32,000 nt of DNA, taken from Candidatus Jordarchaeales archaeon. GTDB taxonomy: Archaea; Asgardarchaeota; Jordiarchaeia; Jordiarchaeales; Freyrarchaeaceae. The notes beneath the pieces were generated by a model. That model was not told the origin of the DNA. It was given only the letters and a program-made list of their open reading frames with translations, and searched no databases. The position numbers and the translations under genes were made by a program. Below, piece after piece: positions 2,904-13,904 of the stretch; the stretch's first letter is position 1, and every line of letters starts with the position of its first letter. The stretch covers positions 314,356-346,355 of the forward strand of contig JAWAHN010000002.1 of assembly GCA_038889235.1 (NCBI GenBank), given 5' to 3'.

Positions 2904-3161
2904 CCCACAACCTCCTACGAGTGAAAAATATAGCCTCAACTTTATAATAATCTTCTCTCCACGATATCTCCTCTATATCTGCATCTCTATAAAACTCTTC
3001 TCTACAAAATAATTGTAAAAAGGATCTCTATTATTGAGGGTATTTTAAGTACTCCCTTATTTTATGTAGAAGTATAGCTCCGCCACCAGTACTCGGGGTC
3101 TATAAGCCATTTTAGGCCACTTTTTCTAGTTTTCTCCCGTTACTCGCGGCTTTAACGTGTT

Positions 3162-4450
3162 TCATGCAAACTTGCGCGGGTCTGTTATCTCTCCTGTGAC
3201 GGCCGAGGCGGCTACAGTTGCCGGCGACGCTAAGTATATCTTCGCATCCTTGCTCCCCATTCTGCCAACAAAGTTCCTGTTAGACGATGATATGCACACT
3301 TCACCGGGAGCCAGGAGGCCTAGATGCGCCCCTATGCACGGCCCACAGGTTGGGTTGCAGACCACGCAGCCTGCTTCGAGGAATATCTCTATCAGTCCCT
3401 CCTTCATAGCTTTCAAGTATACTTCCTTCGATGCCGGTATCACTATCGCTCTGACCATATCTGCAACCTTTCTTCCTTTGAGTATCTTCGCAGCAATCCT
3501 GAGGTCTTCGAGCCTTCCATTGGTGCATGAGCCTATGAACGCCTGGTCTATTTTTACACCCTCAACTTCCGAGACCGGGACGGAGTTTTCCGGGCTTGGA
3601 GGTTTAGCCACCTGCGGCTCAAGGTTAGTGACATCCACATCTATGACTTCCTCATATTCAGCGTCGGGGTCGTTGTAGACTGGTTTAAACGGCTGTCTGG
3701 CTCTCTCTTTGATCCATTGCAGGGTTTTTTCATCCGGCTCTATTATGCCCGTTTTCCCGCCCGCCTCTATCGCCATGTTACAGAGGGTGAAGCGAGCATC
3801 CATGCTGAGCTCCCTAATAGTGTTACCTGCAAACTCCATAGCTTTGTAGCTTGCCCCCTCAACACCTATCTCGCCTATTATGTGAAGGATTATGTCTTTA
3901 CCCATAACCATTGGTTGAAGCTTTCCCTCCACGTTAAACTTGACCGTTGAGGGAACCTTAAACCAGATTTCTCCTGTCGCCAGCACAATGGCCATGTCCG
4001 TTGCACCCATCCCAGTAGCAAAGGCGCCCAGCGCTCCGTAAGTCGTCGTATGCGAGTCACTCCCGACGACAAGATCCCCAGGCTTAACAAATCCCTTCTC
4101 AGGAAGGACGACGTGGCATATACCCTCGCGCATGTCAAGCCAGTTCTTGATCCCGTACTTTTTCACAAACCTCCTACACGTAGCGTGTACAACAGCTGCA
4201 TCGATGCTCGGCGCAGGGGTCCAGTGGTCTATAAGTGCAACCACCTTTTCAGGGTCCCAAATCCTATCTAGGCCCAGCTCCTCATATATGTCCGCTATCC
4301 GCAGTTCGGCGCAGCCCGCTAGTGGGCGGCGCTTCCGAGCATCTCGTGGACCATCACGAGGTCAACCTTTGCGTTAACAATTTCACCCGGCTCAACTCGC
4401 TCCTTGCCCGAATGGGATGCAAGTATCTTCTCCGAAATAGTCATCCCCAT
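3162..4450 (-). CDS. leuC: 3-isopropylmalate dehydratase / homoaconitase large subunit (LeuC/HacA family), split by a 29-nt putative intron; exons 4450-4333 and 4303-3162, 419 aa after splicing
   Basis: ATG at 4450 (GGAGG RBS) encodes [40 protein letters not shown] different frame continues [26 protein letters not shown]...GICH...DSHTTTYG...GSCTNGR...CGPCIG...NRNFVGRMG. Removing 4304-4332 joins them into 1260 nt (420 codons including the stop). Confidence 0.92.
4304..4332 (-). other. Putative 29-nt bulge-helix-bulge (BHB) mRNA intron, GCGCCGCCCACUAGCGGGCUGCGCCGAAC
   Basis: The pre-mRNA folds as exon helix UGC/GCG, central helix UCGG/CCGA (4 of 4 Watson-Crick), 3-nt bulges AAG and ACU on opposite strands, and intron stem CGC-C-GCCC/GGGC-U-GCG with a 6-nt loop. 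Cutting after the second nucleotide of each bulge restores the frame. Confidence 0.85.
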
Positions 4451-4693
4451 CTGCGCTAACCTCCAGAGGAACGCTCTCCACGGACATTAAACATCTCCGT
4501 TAAAAAACTTGATGGAACCCGAAACAAGAACCCGGAAAGCAGAAGCCCAACGGGGAAAGACTACACCACAGTTTTACCTGAAGAGACTGCCACAGAAAAA
4601 TGGGTTACATTTATTAGGATTTTTAGGGCTAGTCTATGGTGACTCTCCACTGTTTTTCACGTTTTCCTTATTAATTAACGGTGGTTGTATGCA

Positions 4694-7378
4694 ATGACAG
4701 AACCTTGGCACTCGCTTCCCATAGAAGAAGTCTTCAAGAAGCTCGGTTCCAGCAGAAACGGTTTAACCCAGTCGGAGGCCAAAGATCGACTCAAGATTTA
4801 CGGCTTTAACGAGATCAAGGAGGTTGCGAAACGCCACCCAATATTGCTCTTCTTAGACCAGTTTAAGAGCGTCTTGATACTAATCCTCATCGTCGCAGCC
4901 CTAATCTCTCTCGCCCTCGGAGACGTGGCTGACACGATAGTTATATCGTTCATCTTGTTTCTAAACGCTGTCCTGGGATTCTACCAGGAGTACAAGGCTG
5001 AACAAGCTGTCGAAGCTCTGAAAAAGATGGCTGCCCCTCAGGCTACGGTCATACGTGATGGTGAGAAGAAGCGGATATACGCGAGGGAGCTCGTAGTAGG
5101 CGATGTCGTCCTGCTGGAGGCTGGAGACAGAGTTCCCGCCGACGTTAGACTAGTTGAAGCGATGAACCTTAGAATCGATGAGTCCGCTTTGACCGGTGAA
5201 TCCGTCCCCGTAGCCAAAGACGCGTCCCTTATTATGAGTAAGGATACACTCCTTAGTAACCGGGCTAATATGGCTTACATGGGGACCGTTGTCGTAAGAG
5301 GTAGAGGGGTCGGAGTGGTTGTTGCCACGGGAATGAACACAGAGTTCGGTAAGATCGCCACACTTGTCCAGACAGTTGAGGAAGAAGAAACTCCTCTCCA
5401 GAAGAAAATGGGGGAGCTTGGCAGGAAGCTTGGCGCGGCGGCCGTGCTAGCTTGCGTCATAATTTTCTTCATTGGCCTCTTTAGGGGAACCGAGCTGCTG
5501 GAGCTCTTCCTTGCGTCCGTGAGCTTGGCTGTTGCGGTTGTTCCCGAGGGACTGCCGGCAATAGTTACGATAACGCTGGCTTTAGGAGTTCAGCGGATGG
5601 CGAAGAGGAACGCAATAATCAGGAGGCTGCCAGCTGTTGAAACTTTAGGGTGCGCGACAGTCATATGTAGCGACAAGACTGGAACTATAACGAAGAATGA
5701 GATGACGGTTAGAGAAGTCTATATCCCCCACCGCTCGCTCCAACTTACGAGTCAAGAAAACGCTGTGCTAGACGAGAAAGGCGACCAGCACTTGCGCTTC
5801 ATGTTCGAGGTCGCATCGCTTTGCAACGACGCCAATGTAAGGAAAGACAAAGACAAGTGGAAGATCGTAGGTGACCCAACAGAGGGAGCTATCCTTGTAG
5901 CCGCGGAGAAGCTCGGCATCAAAGTGGACGAGTTAAGAGAGAAGCATCGCAGGATATTTGAGATACCCTTTGAGTCCGAGCGCAAGAGGATGAACACAGT
6001 CAACCTGTGGGATGGTAAGGCGATAGTGTGTGTTAAGGGAGCGCCAGAAGTGATAACAGAGTTAACGTCAATGATTCTCACGAACGGAGTTGTAAGAGAG
6101 TTTAGCGAAGAAGCGAAGAAGAGGATTCTTGACGTGAACCGTAAGATGGCCGAAAAGGCGCTGAGGATTCTAGCTGTAGCGTACAAGGAAATAGAGGTCA
6201 AGAGCACCTACAAGGAAGAAGAGCTGGAAGACGGTCTCATTTTCCTCGGGTTAATCGGCATGATGGACCCCCCAAGGGAGGAGACTAAGGGTGCCGTCGA
6301 GAAGTGCAAGAGTGCAGGGATAAAGGTGATCATGATAACAGGTGACAACGAGCTAACGGCCAGAGCAATAGCCAGCGAGGTAGGAATCTTAGAAGAGGGC
6401 GGCTTATCTATGACGGGAGCCGAGCTGGAAAAGATAGACGTCAACGAGCTTGAAAAAGTCGTCGAAGACGTGAAAGTCTACGCCCGCGTCTCCCCAGAAC
6501 ATAAGCTCAAGATAGTCACCGCTCTCAAGAACAAGGGGCACGTAGTCGCGATGACAGGGGACGGCGTGAACGACGCCCCAGCCCTCAAGAAAGCCGATAT
6601 AGGAGTGGCCATGGGTGTAACGGGGACTGACGTAGCTAAGGGAACAGCGGACATGGTTCTAGCCGACGACAACTTCGCCACAATAGTTTCAGCGGTGGAA
6701 GAGGGGCGCACGATATACAGCAACATAAAGAAGGCAACATACTACTTGTTGGCGTCAAACATAGGAGAACTGCTAACGATTCTATTCGCTATGATAGCCG
6801 GTCTCCCCCTCCCGCTGACCGCAGCTCAAATATTGTGGATAAACCTCGTCACCGACAGCTTCCCAGCACTCGCCCTTTCAGTCGAGCCACCGGAGGCGGA
6901 CGTGATGAAGCGTCCTCCCAGAGACCCGAAAGCACCATTCATAGGACGTGCATCTATCCTAGAGTTGCTCGGCTGTGGTCTAGTTATGAGCTGCGTCACC
7001 CTCCTCTTATTCTCCGTGGAGCTTGGAGGGATATTCTCAGGAAATTACGAGAGAGCTAAAGTGGTTGCATTCATGACACTCGTACTCTTCCAGATATTTA
7101 ACGCGGTAAACTACAGGTCGGAGGAGAAATCCATTTTCACTATAAACCCGCTTTCGAACAAGTATCTACTTATAGGGCTCGCAATAGCCTTCGCCCTACA
7201 GCTCGTTGTAGTCTACGTTCCCCAACTCCAGCCCTTCTTCGAAACATGCTACCTGTCAGCACTAGACTGGTTGTACATAGCAGCGGCTTCAAGCACAATA
7301 ATAGTGTTCCACGAAGCGAGAAAAGCCTACCAGAGGAGAAAGACAAAGACAACGAGAATGCTTGTAAAGGCCGCGTAA
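4694..7378 (+). CDS. Type II (Ca2+-transporting-like) P-type ATPase
   Basis: Motifs DESALTGES, VPEGLP, CSDKTGT (phosphorylation site), KGAPE, DPPR, MITGDN and MTGDGVNDAPALKKADIG. M5 SNIGE and M6 WINLVTD are SERCA-like ion ligands; the M8 position has Q. ATG at 4694 is preferred over TTG at 4685. Confidence 0.95.
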   Translation: MTEPWHSLPIEEVFKKLGSSRNGLTQSEAKDRLKIYGFNEIKEVAKRHPILLFLDQFKSVLILILIVAALISLALGDVADTIVISFILFLNAVLGFYQEYKAEQAVEALKKMAAPQATVIRDGEKKRIYARELVVGDVVLLEAGDRVPADVRLVEAMNLRIDESALTGESVPVAKDASLIMSKDTLLSNRANMAYMGTVVVRGRGVGVVVATGMNTEFGKIATLVQTVEEEETPLQKKMGELGRKLGAAAVLACVIIFFIGLFRGTELLELFLASVSLAVAVVPEGLPAIVTITLALGVQRMAKRNAIIRRLPAVETLGCATVICSDKTGTITKNEMTVREVYIPHRSLQLTSQENAVLDEKGDQHLRFMFEVASLCNDANVRKDKDKWKIVGDPTEGAILVAAEKLGIKVDELREKHRRIFEIPFESERKRMNTVNLWDGKAIVCVKGAPEVITELTSMILTNGVVREFSEEAKKRILDVNRKMAEKALRILAVAYKEIEVKSTYKEEELEDGLIFLGLIGMMDPPREETKGAVEKCKSAGIKVIMITGDNELTARAIASEVGILEEGGLSMTGAELEKIDVNELEKVVEDVKVYARVSPEHKLKIVTALKNKGHVVAMTGDGVNDAPALKKADIGVAMGVTGTDVAKGTADMVLADDNFATIVSAVEEGRTIYSNIKKATYYLLASNIGELLTILFAMIAGLPLPLTAAQILWINLVTDSFPALALSVEPPEADVMKRPPRDPKAPFIGRASILELLGCGLVMSCVTLLLFSVELGGIFSGNYERAKVVAFMTLVLFQIFNAVNYRSEEKSIFTINPLSNKYLLIGLAIAFALQLVVVYVPQLQPFFETCYLSALDWLYIAAASSTIIVFHEARKAYQRRKTKTTRMLVKAA

Positions 7379-7902: not shown

Positions 7903-10005
7903 TTGAATAATCTTAGGGCATTGTTTAGGCCTTCAAGCATAGCAGTGGTCGGCGCGTCGAGAAGCAAGGGGAAGGTCGGCTACGAAATTCTAAGGAACAT
8001 AGTTGAAGGAGGATACCCTGGAAAGATTTTCCCCGTGAACCCTAACGCAGACCAGATCTTAGGACTACCCTGCTACCCAAGCGTGGAATCCATAGGTGAA
8101 GAGGTTGAACTGGCGGTCGTAGTTGTCCCAGCAAAGCTAGTCCCCGAGGTAGCTGAGGACTGCGGGAAGGCCGGTGTCAAGTGCCTAGTAGTAATAAGTG
8201 CCGGCTTCAAGGAGACTGGTTACGAAGGAGCCAAGCTTGAGAACCAGCTTGTATCCATAGTCAGAGAGTACGGCATGAGAATGCTTGGACCAAACGTCGT
8301 CGGAGTTGCCGACACTCACACTCCCTTAAACGCGACCTTTGCAGCCAAAGCCCCATTAAAGGGAAACATAGCTTTTGCCTCGCAGAGTGGCGCCATGCTA
8401 ACCTCAATACTAGACTGGTCCATGAACGAGGGCATAGGGTTCAGCAAGATCGTAAGTTTGGGCAACAAAGCCGACATAGACGAAACCGACATATTGGAGT
8501 TTCTAGCGGAGGACGAGGAAACAAGAGTCATTTTAATGTACTTGGAGGACGTGAAGAGGGGGGGCGAGTTCTTCAGAAAGGCGAAAAACGCTGTTAGAAA
8601 AAAACCTGTGATCATCCTAAAGTCTGGCAGGAGCGTCGCGGGTTCCAGGGCTGTCGCGTCCCACACGGGTGCGCTAGCTGGAAGCGACAGAGCCTACACA
8701 ACAGCCTTCGAACAGATAGGCGTGATAAGAGTAGATAAAGTTGAGGAACTCTTCGACCTCGCAGTGGCGTTATCCAAGCAGCCACTGCCCGACGTGGAAG
8801 AAGTGGTAGTAGTGACCAATGCAGGTGGGCCAGGAATAGTGACCGCCGACGCCTGCGAGGAAAGGAAAATCAAACTTGCCTCCCTAAAGGAGGAAACTAT
8901 AAGGAGACTTAGGGACGCGCTACCCCCGGCATCATCAATCTACAACCCGGTGGACGTGCTTGGTGACGCCGATGAGCAACGCTACAGGAAGGCCCTCGAA
9001 ATAGTGCTTGAGGACCAGGGAGTTGGAGGATGCATTGTGATCTTAACTCCACAAGCTATGACGAACTCCATGAACGTCGCAGCTACAATCGCCCAGATCA
9101 GCAAAAAGCACGCCAAACCTATCCTGGCGGTCTTCATGGGTGGAGAAAGTGTGCTTGAAGCCAACAGGTTCCTTTCACTTAACGGAATCCCATGCTACTT
9201 TTTCCCTGAAAGAGCTGTCAGCGCCCTGTCAGGCATGATAAAGTACTCGAAGGTGAAAAGACGGGACTACGGGGAAGAATACGTCTCATTCAACGTGAAC
9301 AAGGATAAAGTGAAAGATGTTTTAAGGGCAGCCCGCAACGATGGAAGAACAGTCCTGCTGGCACACGAAGCCTTTGCCGTGGTGTCAGCCTACGGTATAC
9401 CCGTTCCACAGGGTGACATAGCTAGGAGCGAGGACGAGGCTGTGGAAATAGCCGACAAAGTCGGCTACCCAGTGGCTATGAAAGTGGTCTCCCCACAGAT
9501 ACTCCACAAAACAGAAGTGGGTGGAGTGCTGTTAAACCTTCACAGACCAGAGGACGTAAGACGCGGCTACCTCTCAATTCTTTCAAACATACGCAAGTAT
9601 GCTCCTCACGCCAGAGTCTACGGCATCTATGTTCAGAGGATGGTTGAACAGGGGAAGGAGTTTATAGTTGGCATGAGCCGTGACCTCACGTGGGGGCCCA
9701 TGCTGGCTTTCGGCTTGGGAGGAATATATGTAAACTTGATCGAAGATGTATCGTTTAGAATAGCCCCTGTGACGAGGAGCGAAGCGATCCAAATGGTGAA
9801 AGAGACAAAAGCGTACAGGCTTATCCAGGGGTTTAGAGGGGGACAACCACTTGACCTAGAAGCTATACTGGACACGATACTCAAGGTTTCGCAGCTCTCC
9901 ACGGATTTCCCTGAGATAAACGAGATAGATATAAACCCACTTTTCGCTTACCCGAAAGGTTGTATTGCGCTTGACGTCAAAATAACGATAGAGAAGGAGG
10001 GTTAA
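7903..10005 (+). CDS. acd: ADP-forming acetate/acyl-CoA ligase, fused alpha-beta form
   Basis: CoA-binding N-terminus (SIAVVGAS...VNP), SQSGA, SLGNKAD, ASHTGALAG (phospho-His), TNAGGPG, YNPVDVLGDA, and a C-terminal ATP-grasp (GYPVAMKVVSPQILHKTEVGGV...EIDINPL). Confidence 0.92.
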   Translation: MNNLRALFRPSSIAVVGASRSKGKVGYEILRNIVEGGYPGKIFPVNPNADQILGLPCYPSVESIGEEVELAVVVVPAKLVPEVAEDCGKAGVKCLVVISAGFKETGYEGAKLENQLVSIVREYGMRMLGPNVVGVADTHTPLNATFAAKAPLKGNIAFASQSGAMLTSILDWSMNEGIGFSKIVSLGNKADIDETDILEFLAEDEETRVILMYLEDVKRGGEFFRKAKNAVRKKPVIILKSGRSVAGSRAVASHTGALAGSDRAYTTAFEQIGVIRVDKVEELFDLAVALSKQPLPDVEEVVVVTNAGGPGIVTADACEERKIKLASLKEETIRRLRDALPPASSIYNPVDVLGDADEQRYRKALEIVLEDQGVGGCIVILTPQAMTNSMNVAATIAQISKKHAKPILAVFMGGESVLEANRFLSLNGIPCYFFPERAVSALSGMIKYSKVKRRDYGEEYVSFNVNKDKVKDVLRAARNDGRTVLLAHEAFAVVSAYGIPVPQGDIARSEDEAVEIADKVGYPVAMKVVSPQILHKTEVGGVLLNLHRPEDVRRGYLSILSNIRKYAPHARVYGIYVQRMVEQGKEFIVGMSRDLTWGPMLAFGLGGIYVNLIEDVSFRIAPVTRSEAIQMVKETKAYRLIQGFRGGQPLDLEAILDTILKVSQLSTDFPEINEIDINPLFAYPKGCIALDVKITIEKEG

Positions 10006-12191: not shown

Positions 12192-13847
12192 CTAGTCTAT
12201 GGAGCTGCTCTCCTTCTCCTCCTCTTCCTCAGACGTCTTCTCACCGCTCGGTCCAGTTTCACTCTTTGCCGCTGAAGCCGCTATCACGTCGTCGATTCTC
12301 AGTATTAACGCTGCAGCCTCAGTCGAAGACTTCAACGCCTGCTTCTTAACCAGCGCAGGCTCCCACACACTCATCTCAGCCATGTCCACAACTTTGCCGC
12401 TGAACACGTCAACACCGTAAGTCACCTTGCCCTTCTCGTGCGCCGCCCTCAGCTCAGCTAGAATGTCAATCGGGTCAAGCCCAGCATTCTCAGCGAGCGT
12501 CTTAGGTATAACCTCAATCGCCTCAGCGAACTGCTTCACGGCAAGCTGCTCTCTGCCACTCAGCGTCTCAGCATACTCTTTAAGTCTCTTAGCAATCTCA
12601 ATCTCTGGAGCCCCACCGCCAGCAACTACACGTCCATCCTCAACCACAGCTTTCACGACGCAAAGCGCATCGTGTATCGAGCGCTCGGCTTCTTCGACAA
12701 CCAGCTCCGTACCACCTCTGACCAAGATGCTCACAGCCCTCGGATTCTTGCATCCTTCTACAAACACCATCTCGTCGTCGCCAATCTTCTTTTCGTAGAC
12801 CACTGCTGCCTCACCGAGATCCTTCTCACTTAGGTCCTCAAGGTTTGTCACTATGTTTCCACCAGTAGCCTTCGCGAGCTTCTCCATGTCACTCTTCTTA
12901 ATCCTTCGCACCGCAAGAATCCCAGCCTTCGCCAAGAAGTGCTGAGCCAAGTCATCAATACCCTTCTGGCAGAGAACCACGTTAGCACCGGTCTTCACAA
13001 TCTTGTTCACCATCTCTTCAATCATCCTCTGCTCCTCATCAAGGAAACTCTTCATCTGCTCCGGTGAAGTAATGTTAATCTTAGCGTCAAACTCAGTCTT
13101 CTCAATCTCCAACGGACAGGCCAGCAAAGCAATCTTCGCATTCTCAACGCGCTTCGGCATCCCCGGGTGCACAACCTCCTTGTCAAGCACTATGCCCTCA
13201 ATGAACATCGTATCATCAAGACTCTCCCCTTCCTTCTTCTCCACCTTAATGTTGTCAAGGTCAACCTTCCACTCACTGTTAACCCTCTCCGCAACCTTCC
13301 TCACAGCCTTCACCGCAATCTCAGCCAGGTAATCCCTTGACCCCGAAACCATCTTACTGCACATCGCCGTCATAGCAACCTTCTTAAGCATCTCCTCGTC
13401 ATCCGGGTCAACCCTAACCGAAATACTGTCAATAACCTCCAAAGCCTTCTCCAAAGCCTTCCTGTAACCATCAACGATCACAGTCGGATGCACATCCTGG
13501 TCCAACAACACCTCAGCATTCTTGAGAAGCTCACCAGCTAACACAACCGCTGTCGTTGTACCATCACCCACCTCTTGATCTTGCGTCTTCGCAACGTTAA
13601 CCATCATCTTCGCCGCAGGATGCTGCACATCTATCTCTTTTAGTATAGTCGCTCCATCGTTCGTGATCACCACGTCCCCGAAGCTGTCGACGAGCATCTT
13701 GTCCATTCCGAGGGGGCCAAGTGATGTCCGAACTGCCTCCGCGATTACTCTGGCCGCCATGATGTTTGTCCTTTGTGCGTCTCTACCAGCAGCTCTTCTA
13801 GTTCCCTCCTTTAGTATGAGGACTGGGGTTCCACTTAGCATAGCCAT
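12192..13847 (-). CDS. ths: Thermosome (group II chaperonin) subunit
   Basis: [44 protein letters not shown] and [11 protein letters not shown] at 13847 after GGAGG. Confidence 0.97.
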
Positions 13848-13904
13848 AACGAATCCCTCCTTAAACACTCACAGAGAAGTCATAAATTGGTGAAAATGCA
13901 CTTC

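Follow-up and report, generated by a model that had tools for sequence, protein, structure and literature searches.

A predicted bulge-helix-bulge intron conserved in a LeuC/HacA-family gene of Jordarchaeales

The interrupted leuC/hacA gene and its insert

We analysed a 32,000-nucleotide stretch of DNA (hereafter, the window) on contig 2 of a 2.14-Mb, 95% complete metagenome-assembled genome of an uncultured hot-spring archaeon (order Jordarchaeales, Asgard), in which a leuC/hacA gene, coding for the large subunit of an aconitase-family enzyme, is interrupted by a 29-nt insert. Judged from its sequence, the insert is very likely a conserved bulge-helix-bulge (BHB) intron that is spliced from the mRNA, as a preliminary description of this DNA had proposed: compensating mutations preserve it in every related genome that we looked at, which is why we consider its removal from the mRNA very probable.

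The gene runs from 4450 to 3162 on the minus strand, and its reading frame is broken after codon 39. In the unspliced frame of exon 1, HEMLG is followed by SAAH and then by a TAG stop codon (4321-4319), and the frame of exon 2 is offset relative to that of exon 1; re-reading of both frames confirmed the earlier statement that the gene is out of frame and that a TAG ends its first frame. Removing positions 4304-4332 in silico left 1260 nt, which encode 419 amino acids (aa) and a stop codon. The predicted junction (4333 joined to 4303; CTCGGAA followed directly by TGCGGATAG) joins A (4333) to UG (4303-4302), which gives a Met codon, and the 419-aa predicted product aligned with intact 420-aa homologs in a gap-free and colinear manner (HEMLG-M-RIAD versus HEVLG-I-RIAG). 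The proposal that the canonical cut rule, applied with no adjustment, takes out 29 nt (4332-4304) and leaves a full-length 419-aa protein thus holds for cut sites, length and product alike. The predicted parts of the gene are:

4333..4450, minus strand: exon 1, with its ATG at 4450-4448, 39 codons (MGMT...VHEMLG) and, at its end, A (4333) as first base of the Met codon at the junction
4304..4332, minus strand: predicted BHB intron of 29 nt, RNA 5' end at 4332 and 3' end at 4304, with the TAG (4321-4319) in the ACUAGC hairpin loop
3162..4303, minus strand: exon 2, opening with bases two and three (TG) of the Met codon at the junction and continuing for 379 codons up to the stop codon (3164-3162)

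Read in RNA order from 4351 to 4290, the site is made up of a 13-nt outer strand, UCGG, AAG, CGCCGCCC, ACUAGC, GGGCUGCG, CCGA, ACU and a second 13-nt outer strand, with these elements:

4335..4338, minus strand: central helix, 5' strand UCGG, exonic and part of the Leu-Gly codons; pairs with 4306-4309
4332..4334, minus strand: 5' bulge AAG, predicted cut between 4333 and 4332; first two bases (AA) invariant in 13 orthologs
4310..4331, minus strand: inner hairpin, stem CGCCGCCC (4331-4324) with GGGCUGCG (4317-4310), loop ACUAGC (4323-4318)
4306..4309, minus strand: central helix, 3' strand CCGA, intronic
4303..4305, minus strand: 3' bulge ACU, predicted cut between 4304 and 4303; third base (U) invariant in 13 orthologs
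4290..4302, minus strand: outer helix, 3' strand, in exon 2; partner 4339-4351 in exon 1

The inner stem has 8 positions with one C.U mismatch, and the exon flanks are paired at 9 of 13 positions, one of them a G.U. With two 3-nt bulges on opposite strands, a 4-bp helix between them and flanking helices on both sides, the site belongs to the hBHBh' class, and the 4-bp helix stands before its bulge on each strand, which is the geometry of archaeal tRNA introns and not its mirror image. The UCGG/CCGA helix, the two 3-nt bulges, the intron stem and the 9/13 outer pairs had all been described accurately beforehand. The outer flanking helix is adequate for a relaxed or a strict motif, yet weak; it is codon-constrained because the exon arms are coding sequence. 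Relaxed BHB matches are common by chance (~31,700 in the 2.1-Mb genome versus 31,400 in a mirror control); for a motif as good as this one, with position and length both fixed, the frequency is ~1e-5. Neither Rfam families nor, with ARAGORN, tRNA genes were found in the window.

The gene is, by its profile matches, a LeuC/HacA-family (isopropylmalate/homoaconitate dehydratase) large subunit. Exon 2 matched Pfam Aconitase (4.6e-111), and scored on its own (in bits, cut-offs in brackets) 599.6 against hacA_fam (385.7), 599.5 against PRK00402 (385) and 552.6 against IPMI_arch (410). The 39 residues of exon 1 matched positions 1-36 of the NCBIfam large-subunit profiles and exon 2 matched from position 42/45, so that coverage of these profiles is colinear over the junction to within one residue. 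For a query without the first 40 residues, the equivalog scores were 542.5 for LEU2 (cut-off 610.65) and 509.3 for HacA_Meth (cut-off 550); because neither the LeuC nor the methanogen HacA equivalog cut-off is reached, we name the gene only to the level of the LeuC/HacA family.

The gene neighbourhood differs between the window's family and a sister family of the order. In the window, the interrupted gene stands alone between an HtrA-like protease gene (1965-2939) and a divergent P-type ATPase gene (4685-7378), and in the sister family (L058, L060) it lies between a gene of the isocitrate/isopropylmalate dehydrogenase family (Iso_dh) and an Aconitase_C small-subunit gene.

Conservation and covariation of the insert among relatives

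All 13 distinct Jordarchaeales orthologs that we examined are interrupted at the same codon by an insert that measures 29, 30 or 33 nt. These sequences come from the window genome and eight other species genomes, in two families, and from metagenome and other contigs; inserts of the window's family have 29 nt, and those of the sister family have 33, 30 or 29 nt. Outgroup homologs (at most 66% identity) are without it, and a tblastn search with both exon peptides found exactly 3 nt (one codon) between the exon matches at 14 insert-free homolog loci. Two intact homologs of 420 aa (P0044 and P0045) read VAMVHEVLG-I-RIAGMLREAG and are residue-for-residue colinear with the predicted product, and two insert-free loci (L036 and L037) read LGMR (GGT ATG CGG), which is just the junction expected after splicing. 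The comparison with orthologs that had been suggested beforehand thus supported the proposal on both sides: intact homologs lack exactly this insert, with one codon at the junction, and within the order a co-varying BHB insert occupies the same site in every ortholog examined.

The same division appeared in a collection of 5.8 billion proteins, where all matches of at least 71% identity were shortened gene calls (334-390 aa), and all matches of at most 66% identity were at least 415 aa long, bar one 371-aa cluster. The closest proteins carry the labels Candidatus Jordarchaeales or Freyrarchaeum. A search for the DNA pattern of the spliced junction, CAYGARATGCTYGGAATGCGNATHGC, gave 0 matches in 185,579 species genomes, and there is no intron-less close allele among them. 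Within the genome of the window, no further copy of the 29-nt insert was found at up to 6 substitutions, and with no second copy the insert is not a repeat or a mobile element. We infer a single gain of the intron, in the ancestor of the order, followed by drift in sequence and length (29, 30 or 33 nt) while its fold was kept.

We counted base pairs of the BHB structure in an alignment of the 13 distinct sequences. The central helix was paired in 100% of its 52 cells, and one ortholog (L006) showed a double change from C-G to U-A in it, in which the exonic CTC became CTT and the intronic strand CTAA. In the inner stem, whose sequence has almost nothing in common between the two families, 91% of the cells were paired, and both sides had changed in 6 of the 8 pairs. 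None of 500 shuffles reached the observed covariation score, and sliding the partner strand by 1-3 columns lowered pairing to 24-40% from the observed 77.8%. RNAalifold, run without a given structure, recovered the inner stem, the 5' bulge of 3 nt and the central helix of 4 bp. In the outer helix 62.7% of the cells were paired, and only the C-G, G-C and U.G pairs that adjoin the bulge were invariant. The bases that would rebuild the Met codon, namely the A in the first bulge and the U in the second with the G that follows it, were invariant in the 13 orthologs.

Since the frame is broken in a metagenome-assembled genome that also holds an intact paralog of the gene (54% identity; C2:144705-145817), a pseudogene, or an artefact of assembly or sequencing, has to be considered. 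Quantification of variable sites in exon 1 by codon position (1/2/3) gave 10/7/32 in 14 orthologs, and its codon differences were 1232 synonymous versus 459 nonsynonymous, similar to the start of exon 2. Both exons are therefore under purifying selection, exon 1 in its own frame. The concentration of exon variation at synonymous third positions excludes a decaying pseudogene. The stretch is carried by three DNA runs of two studies, the runs being hot-spring metagenomes, and 13 distinct sequences, assembled independently from several samples, contain the insert, which is therefore genomic, as the preliminary description had it. Exon selection, together with the many independent assemblies, excludes an artefact, and neither a pseudogene nor an artefact would have its structure maintained by compensatory changes. 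We saw neither raw DNA reads devoid of the 29 nt nor a relaxation of selection on exon 1, and give this explanation next to no chance.

The ribosome might also cross the break by translational recoding, that is, by a programmed frameshift, a hop or read-through of the stop codon. The 29-nt versions need a net frame change, a stable hairpin is present at the site, and early cbf5 cases were once taken for frameshifting (PMC2738675). However, the 30- and 33-nt inserts of orthologs are in frame, yet contain one or two stop codons, and no single recoding rule would serve all lineages; neither frameshift nor read-through can be the common solution, whereas a single splicing rule accounts for every lineage. 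With read-through, the protein would gain 10-11 residues that are found in no intact homolog, and a hop from GGA to GGA would end directly before the TAG. Recoding is, in our judgement, very improbable.

Splicing machinery, further interrupted genes and RNA data

The genome encodes two EndA paralogs that are 33% identical. The alpha paralog (L001:1192-1782) keeps the Tyr, His and Lys of the catalytic subunit, and its nearest chains in the Protein Data Bank are 3p1z_B, 3ajv_B and 2zyz_B, which we take to be crenarchaeal heterotetrameric endonucleases. The beta paralog (L002:1474-2061, minus strand) lacks the aligned His and gave weak matches to beta-subunit models. One catalytic and one His-less paralog point to a splicing endonuclease of the (alpha-beta)2 type. 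This type reportedly cuts cbf5 pre-mRNA (PMC2738675), and it is credited with a broad substrate specificity (PMC5829648). RtcB (599.9 bits) and archease are both present and intact. In the mechanism that we propose, EndA alpha and beta, as a heterotetramer, would cut the pre-mRNA at both bulges, RtcB with archease would join the exons, and the intron would probably be circularised by RtcB. Only the spliced mRNA would then yield active enzyme, and the unspliced mRNA would give a 43-aa peptide.

Four further genes of the genome, leuD, cbf5, kae1 and hypD, have BHB-flanked inserts whose canonical removal restores conserved motifs. The leuD-family small-subunit gene, which lies beside the paralogous large-subunit gene and 168 kb upstream of the window, has a 29-nt insert (C2:145890-145918) with a CUGG/CUGG helix, AAU and AAA as its bulges and a fully paired stem of 8 bp, and its removal gives DYIIPG-K-YKFK. 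With the leuC and leuD inserts, both subunit types of the enzyme family appear to carry such introns, in different operons. A second small-subunit gene, unlinked, is located at C1:290323-290508. In cbf5 (L063) the insert is also 29 nt (~C1:835887-835915), with a CACU/GGUG helix, a 5-bp GC stem and a weak outer helix; its site is the position reported for crenarchaeal cbf5 introns (PMC2738675), which may reflect shared ancestry or a recurrent insertion site. The kae1 insert (14 nt; C1:846098-846111) has an 8-bp outer helix, and its removal joins positions 63 and 64 of Pfam TsaD. Removal of the hypD insert (17 nt; C1:259820-259836) restores MHVCGT-HEQT, and the BHB geometry is canonical at hypD as at kae1. 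The introns of the five genes (leuC, leuD, cbf5, kae1, hypD) are unrelated in sequence.

The tRNA genes of this genome are interrupted as well. ARAGORN recognised only 13 of them despite the 95% completeness of the genome, and 9 of the 13 contain introns, which measure 11-96 nt. A standard finder evidently misses most of the tRNA genes because of their interruptions, in agreement with reports of 2024 and 2026 that the tRNA genes of Freyr/Jordarchaeia are heavily interrupted, many of the introns lying at non-canonical positions (PMC11291895; bioRxiv 10.64898/2026.10.13.758758).

We also scanned the whole genome for BHB motifs at which a canonical excision would fuse two open frames, with a mirror-geometry control. 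The scan recovered the leuC/hacA intron, and genome-wide it revealed no excess over the control, either for relaxed motifs (990 versus 990 distinct sites) or for strict, ORF-joining ones (199 versus 209). A scan that makes no use of homology cannot count true mRNA introns, because they are drowned out by motifs that arise by chance where ordinary genes adjoin. Whether splicing of mRNAs is a habit of the whole lineage, such that many protein-coding mRNAs of Jordarchaeia depend on repair by RtcB and the tRNA-splicing endonuclease to become translatable, and of which the five genes above would be instances, seems to us an evenly balanced question.

RNA was mapped on positions 3000-4700, using raw reads of three hot-spring metatranscriptomes (3-5% of each) and contigs of a sediment metatranscriptome (X4). 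In the latter, one 180-nt contig matched at 3294-3470 with 3 differences in 177 nt, away from the junction, which hints at possible transcription in a close relative elsewhere.

The case for splicing of the leuC/hacA insert has several weak points. The hot-spring samples, at the depth given above, yielded 0, 0 and 1 reads on the gene and left the junction uncovered, which bears on splicing neither way. A protein of the spliced form (~420 aa, at least 71% identical) is absent from the 5.8-billion-protein collection. In the sister family, GTG, TTG and ATG codons in the 3' stem of the intron are taken by gene callers as starts, giving proteins of 382-386 aa. On the side of the structure, the single-sequence minimum free energy fold is one base off (a 3-bp helix with the bulge GAA) and its folding energy is ordinary (z = -1.27); the outer exon-exon helix is weak, with three conserved pairs at which covariation is impossible, and RNAalifold favours another outer register, of 4 pairs with a 5-nt 3' bulge. 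Since it is the central helix that sets the positions of the cuts, the predicted junction is identical in either outer register.

The gene calls would suit a stably split gene, in which an N-terminal peptide of 43-51 aa and a protein of ~380 aa are made separately and assemble, the hairpin having another role, for instance in coupling translation or stabilising the mRNA. Every ortholog is annotated by gene callers as two ORFs, and the potential start codons of the sister family lie in the 3' arm of the hairpin. In the window's family, by contrast, there is no ATG, GTG or TTG between the break and a GTG at 4244, and a start at that GTG would lose a conserved 19-residue segment. Separate translation also leaves unexplained the exact BHB geometry, the invariance of the bases that rebuild the Met codon, and the covariation of synonymous sites in the last two codons of exon 1 with the intronic strand (CTT GGA with CTAA in L006), and the same geometry recurs in the four other genes of this genome. 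A stably split gene is thus unlikely in our view, though less so than recoding and least so in the sister family, and splicing of a BHB intron remains the reading that we prefer.

The other neighbours of the gene in the window appear ordinary, and include MTD (methylene-tetrahydromethanopterin dehydrogenase; 755-1597), an ADP-forming acyl-CoA synthetase-type protein (7903-10005) and a thermosome subunit (12192-13868).

Comparison with known introns and significance

In Crenarchaeota, cbf5, the gene of a pseudouridine synthase, reportedly has a BHB intron in Desulfurococcales and Sulfolobales, as Watanabe in 2002 and Yoshinari in 2006 are said to have described. In the literature covered here, it is the only archaeal gene with confirmed pre-mRNA splicing, introns in other protein genes having been merely predicted (Yokobori 2009, PMC2738675), and the mention of cbf5 in the preliminary description as the classical archaeal mRNA intron agrees with that source. 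Like the cbf5 intron, the predicted leuC/hacA intron is short, lies in coding sequence, has its borders between the second and third bases of both BHB bulges, and is conserved over an order-level clade and absent from relatives; its host, like those of cbf5 introns, has a hetero-oligomeric (alpha/beta) splicing endonuclease. It differs in having a canonical motif, most of those in cbf5 being called unconventional (PMC2738675), and in its host gene, which encodes a subunit of a metabolic Fe-S dehydratase instead of an enzyme that modifies RNA, in a lineage (Jordarchaeales) of the phylum Asgard. Splicing of cbf5 was shown experimentally, whereas that of leuC/hacA is predicted from sequence.

A BHB processing site of Haloferax volcanii is said to lie in a 5' untranslated region, outside the coding sequence; unlike that site, the leuC/hacA intron interrupts a codon. 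In H. volcanii the splicing endonuclease acts, in a BHB-dependent manner, on an mRNA (PMC7714728), as it would on the leuC/hacA transcript. With the BHB introns of archaeal tRNAs and rRNAs the leuC/hacA intron shares the RNA motif, the cut rule and presumably the enzymes (EndA and RtcB), but its substrate would be an mRNA, the exon arms are coding and the product must keep the reading frame. In the unconventional splicing of HAC1/XBP1 in eukaryotes, Ire1 cleaves the mRNA and tRNA ligase or RtcB joins it, as a regulated stress switch, and both this endonuclease and the RNA motif differ from those of the leuC/hacA case. The resemblance to the splicing predicted here lies in a short, spliceosome-independent mRNA intron whose removal changes the reading frame and whose exons are joined by a tRNA-splicing ligase (PMC8718801).

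Full-text searches of freely accessible literature found no paper on BHB introns in Asgard protein-coding genes or on the leuC/hacA locus, and the published work on introns of Freyr/Jordarchaeia covers tRNA genes only (PMC11291895; bioRxiv 10.64898/2026.10.13.758758). The leuC/hacA intron adds to a known, very sparsely documented kind, the archaeal mRNA BHB introns. It is clean, occurs throughout the order and has the support of covariation, and its host is a core gene of metabolism in an Asgard lineage notable for its intron-rich tRNA genes. Such genes are systematically misannotated by gene callers, as a shortened protein and a tiny ORF. The predicted intron offers a concrete substrate on which the action of Asgard EndA and RtcB on mRNAs can be tested, and it bears on the existence of split protein genes where transcription and translation are coupled. 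If the lineage-wide habit proved true, a prokaryote closely related to eukaryotes would commonly have split protein genes with obligatory mRNA splicing, which could be a checkpoint on gene expression.
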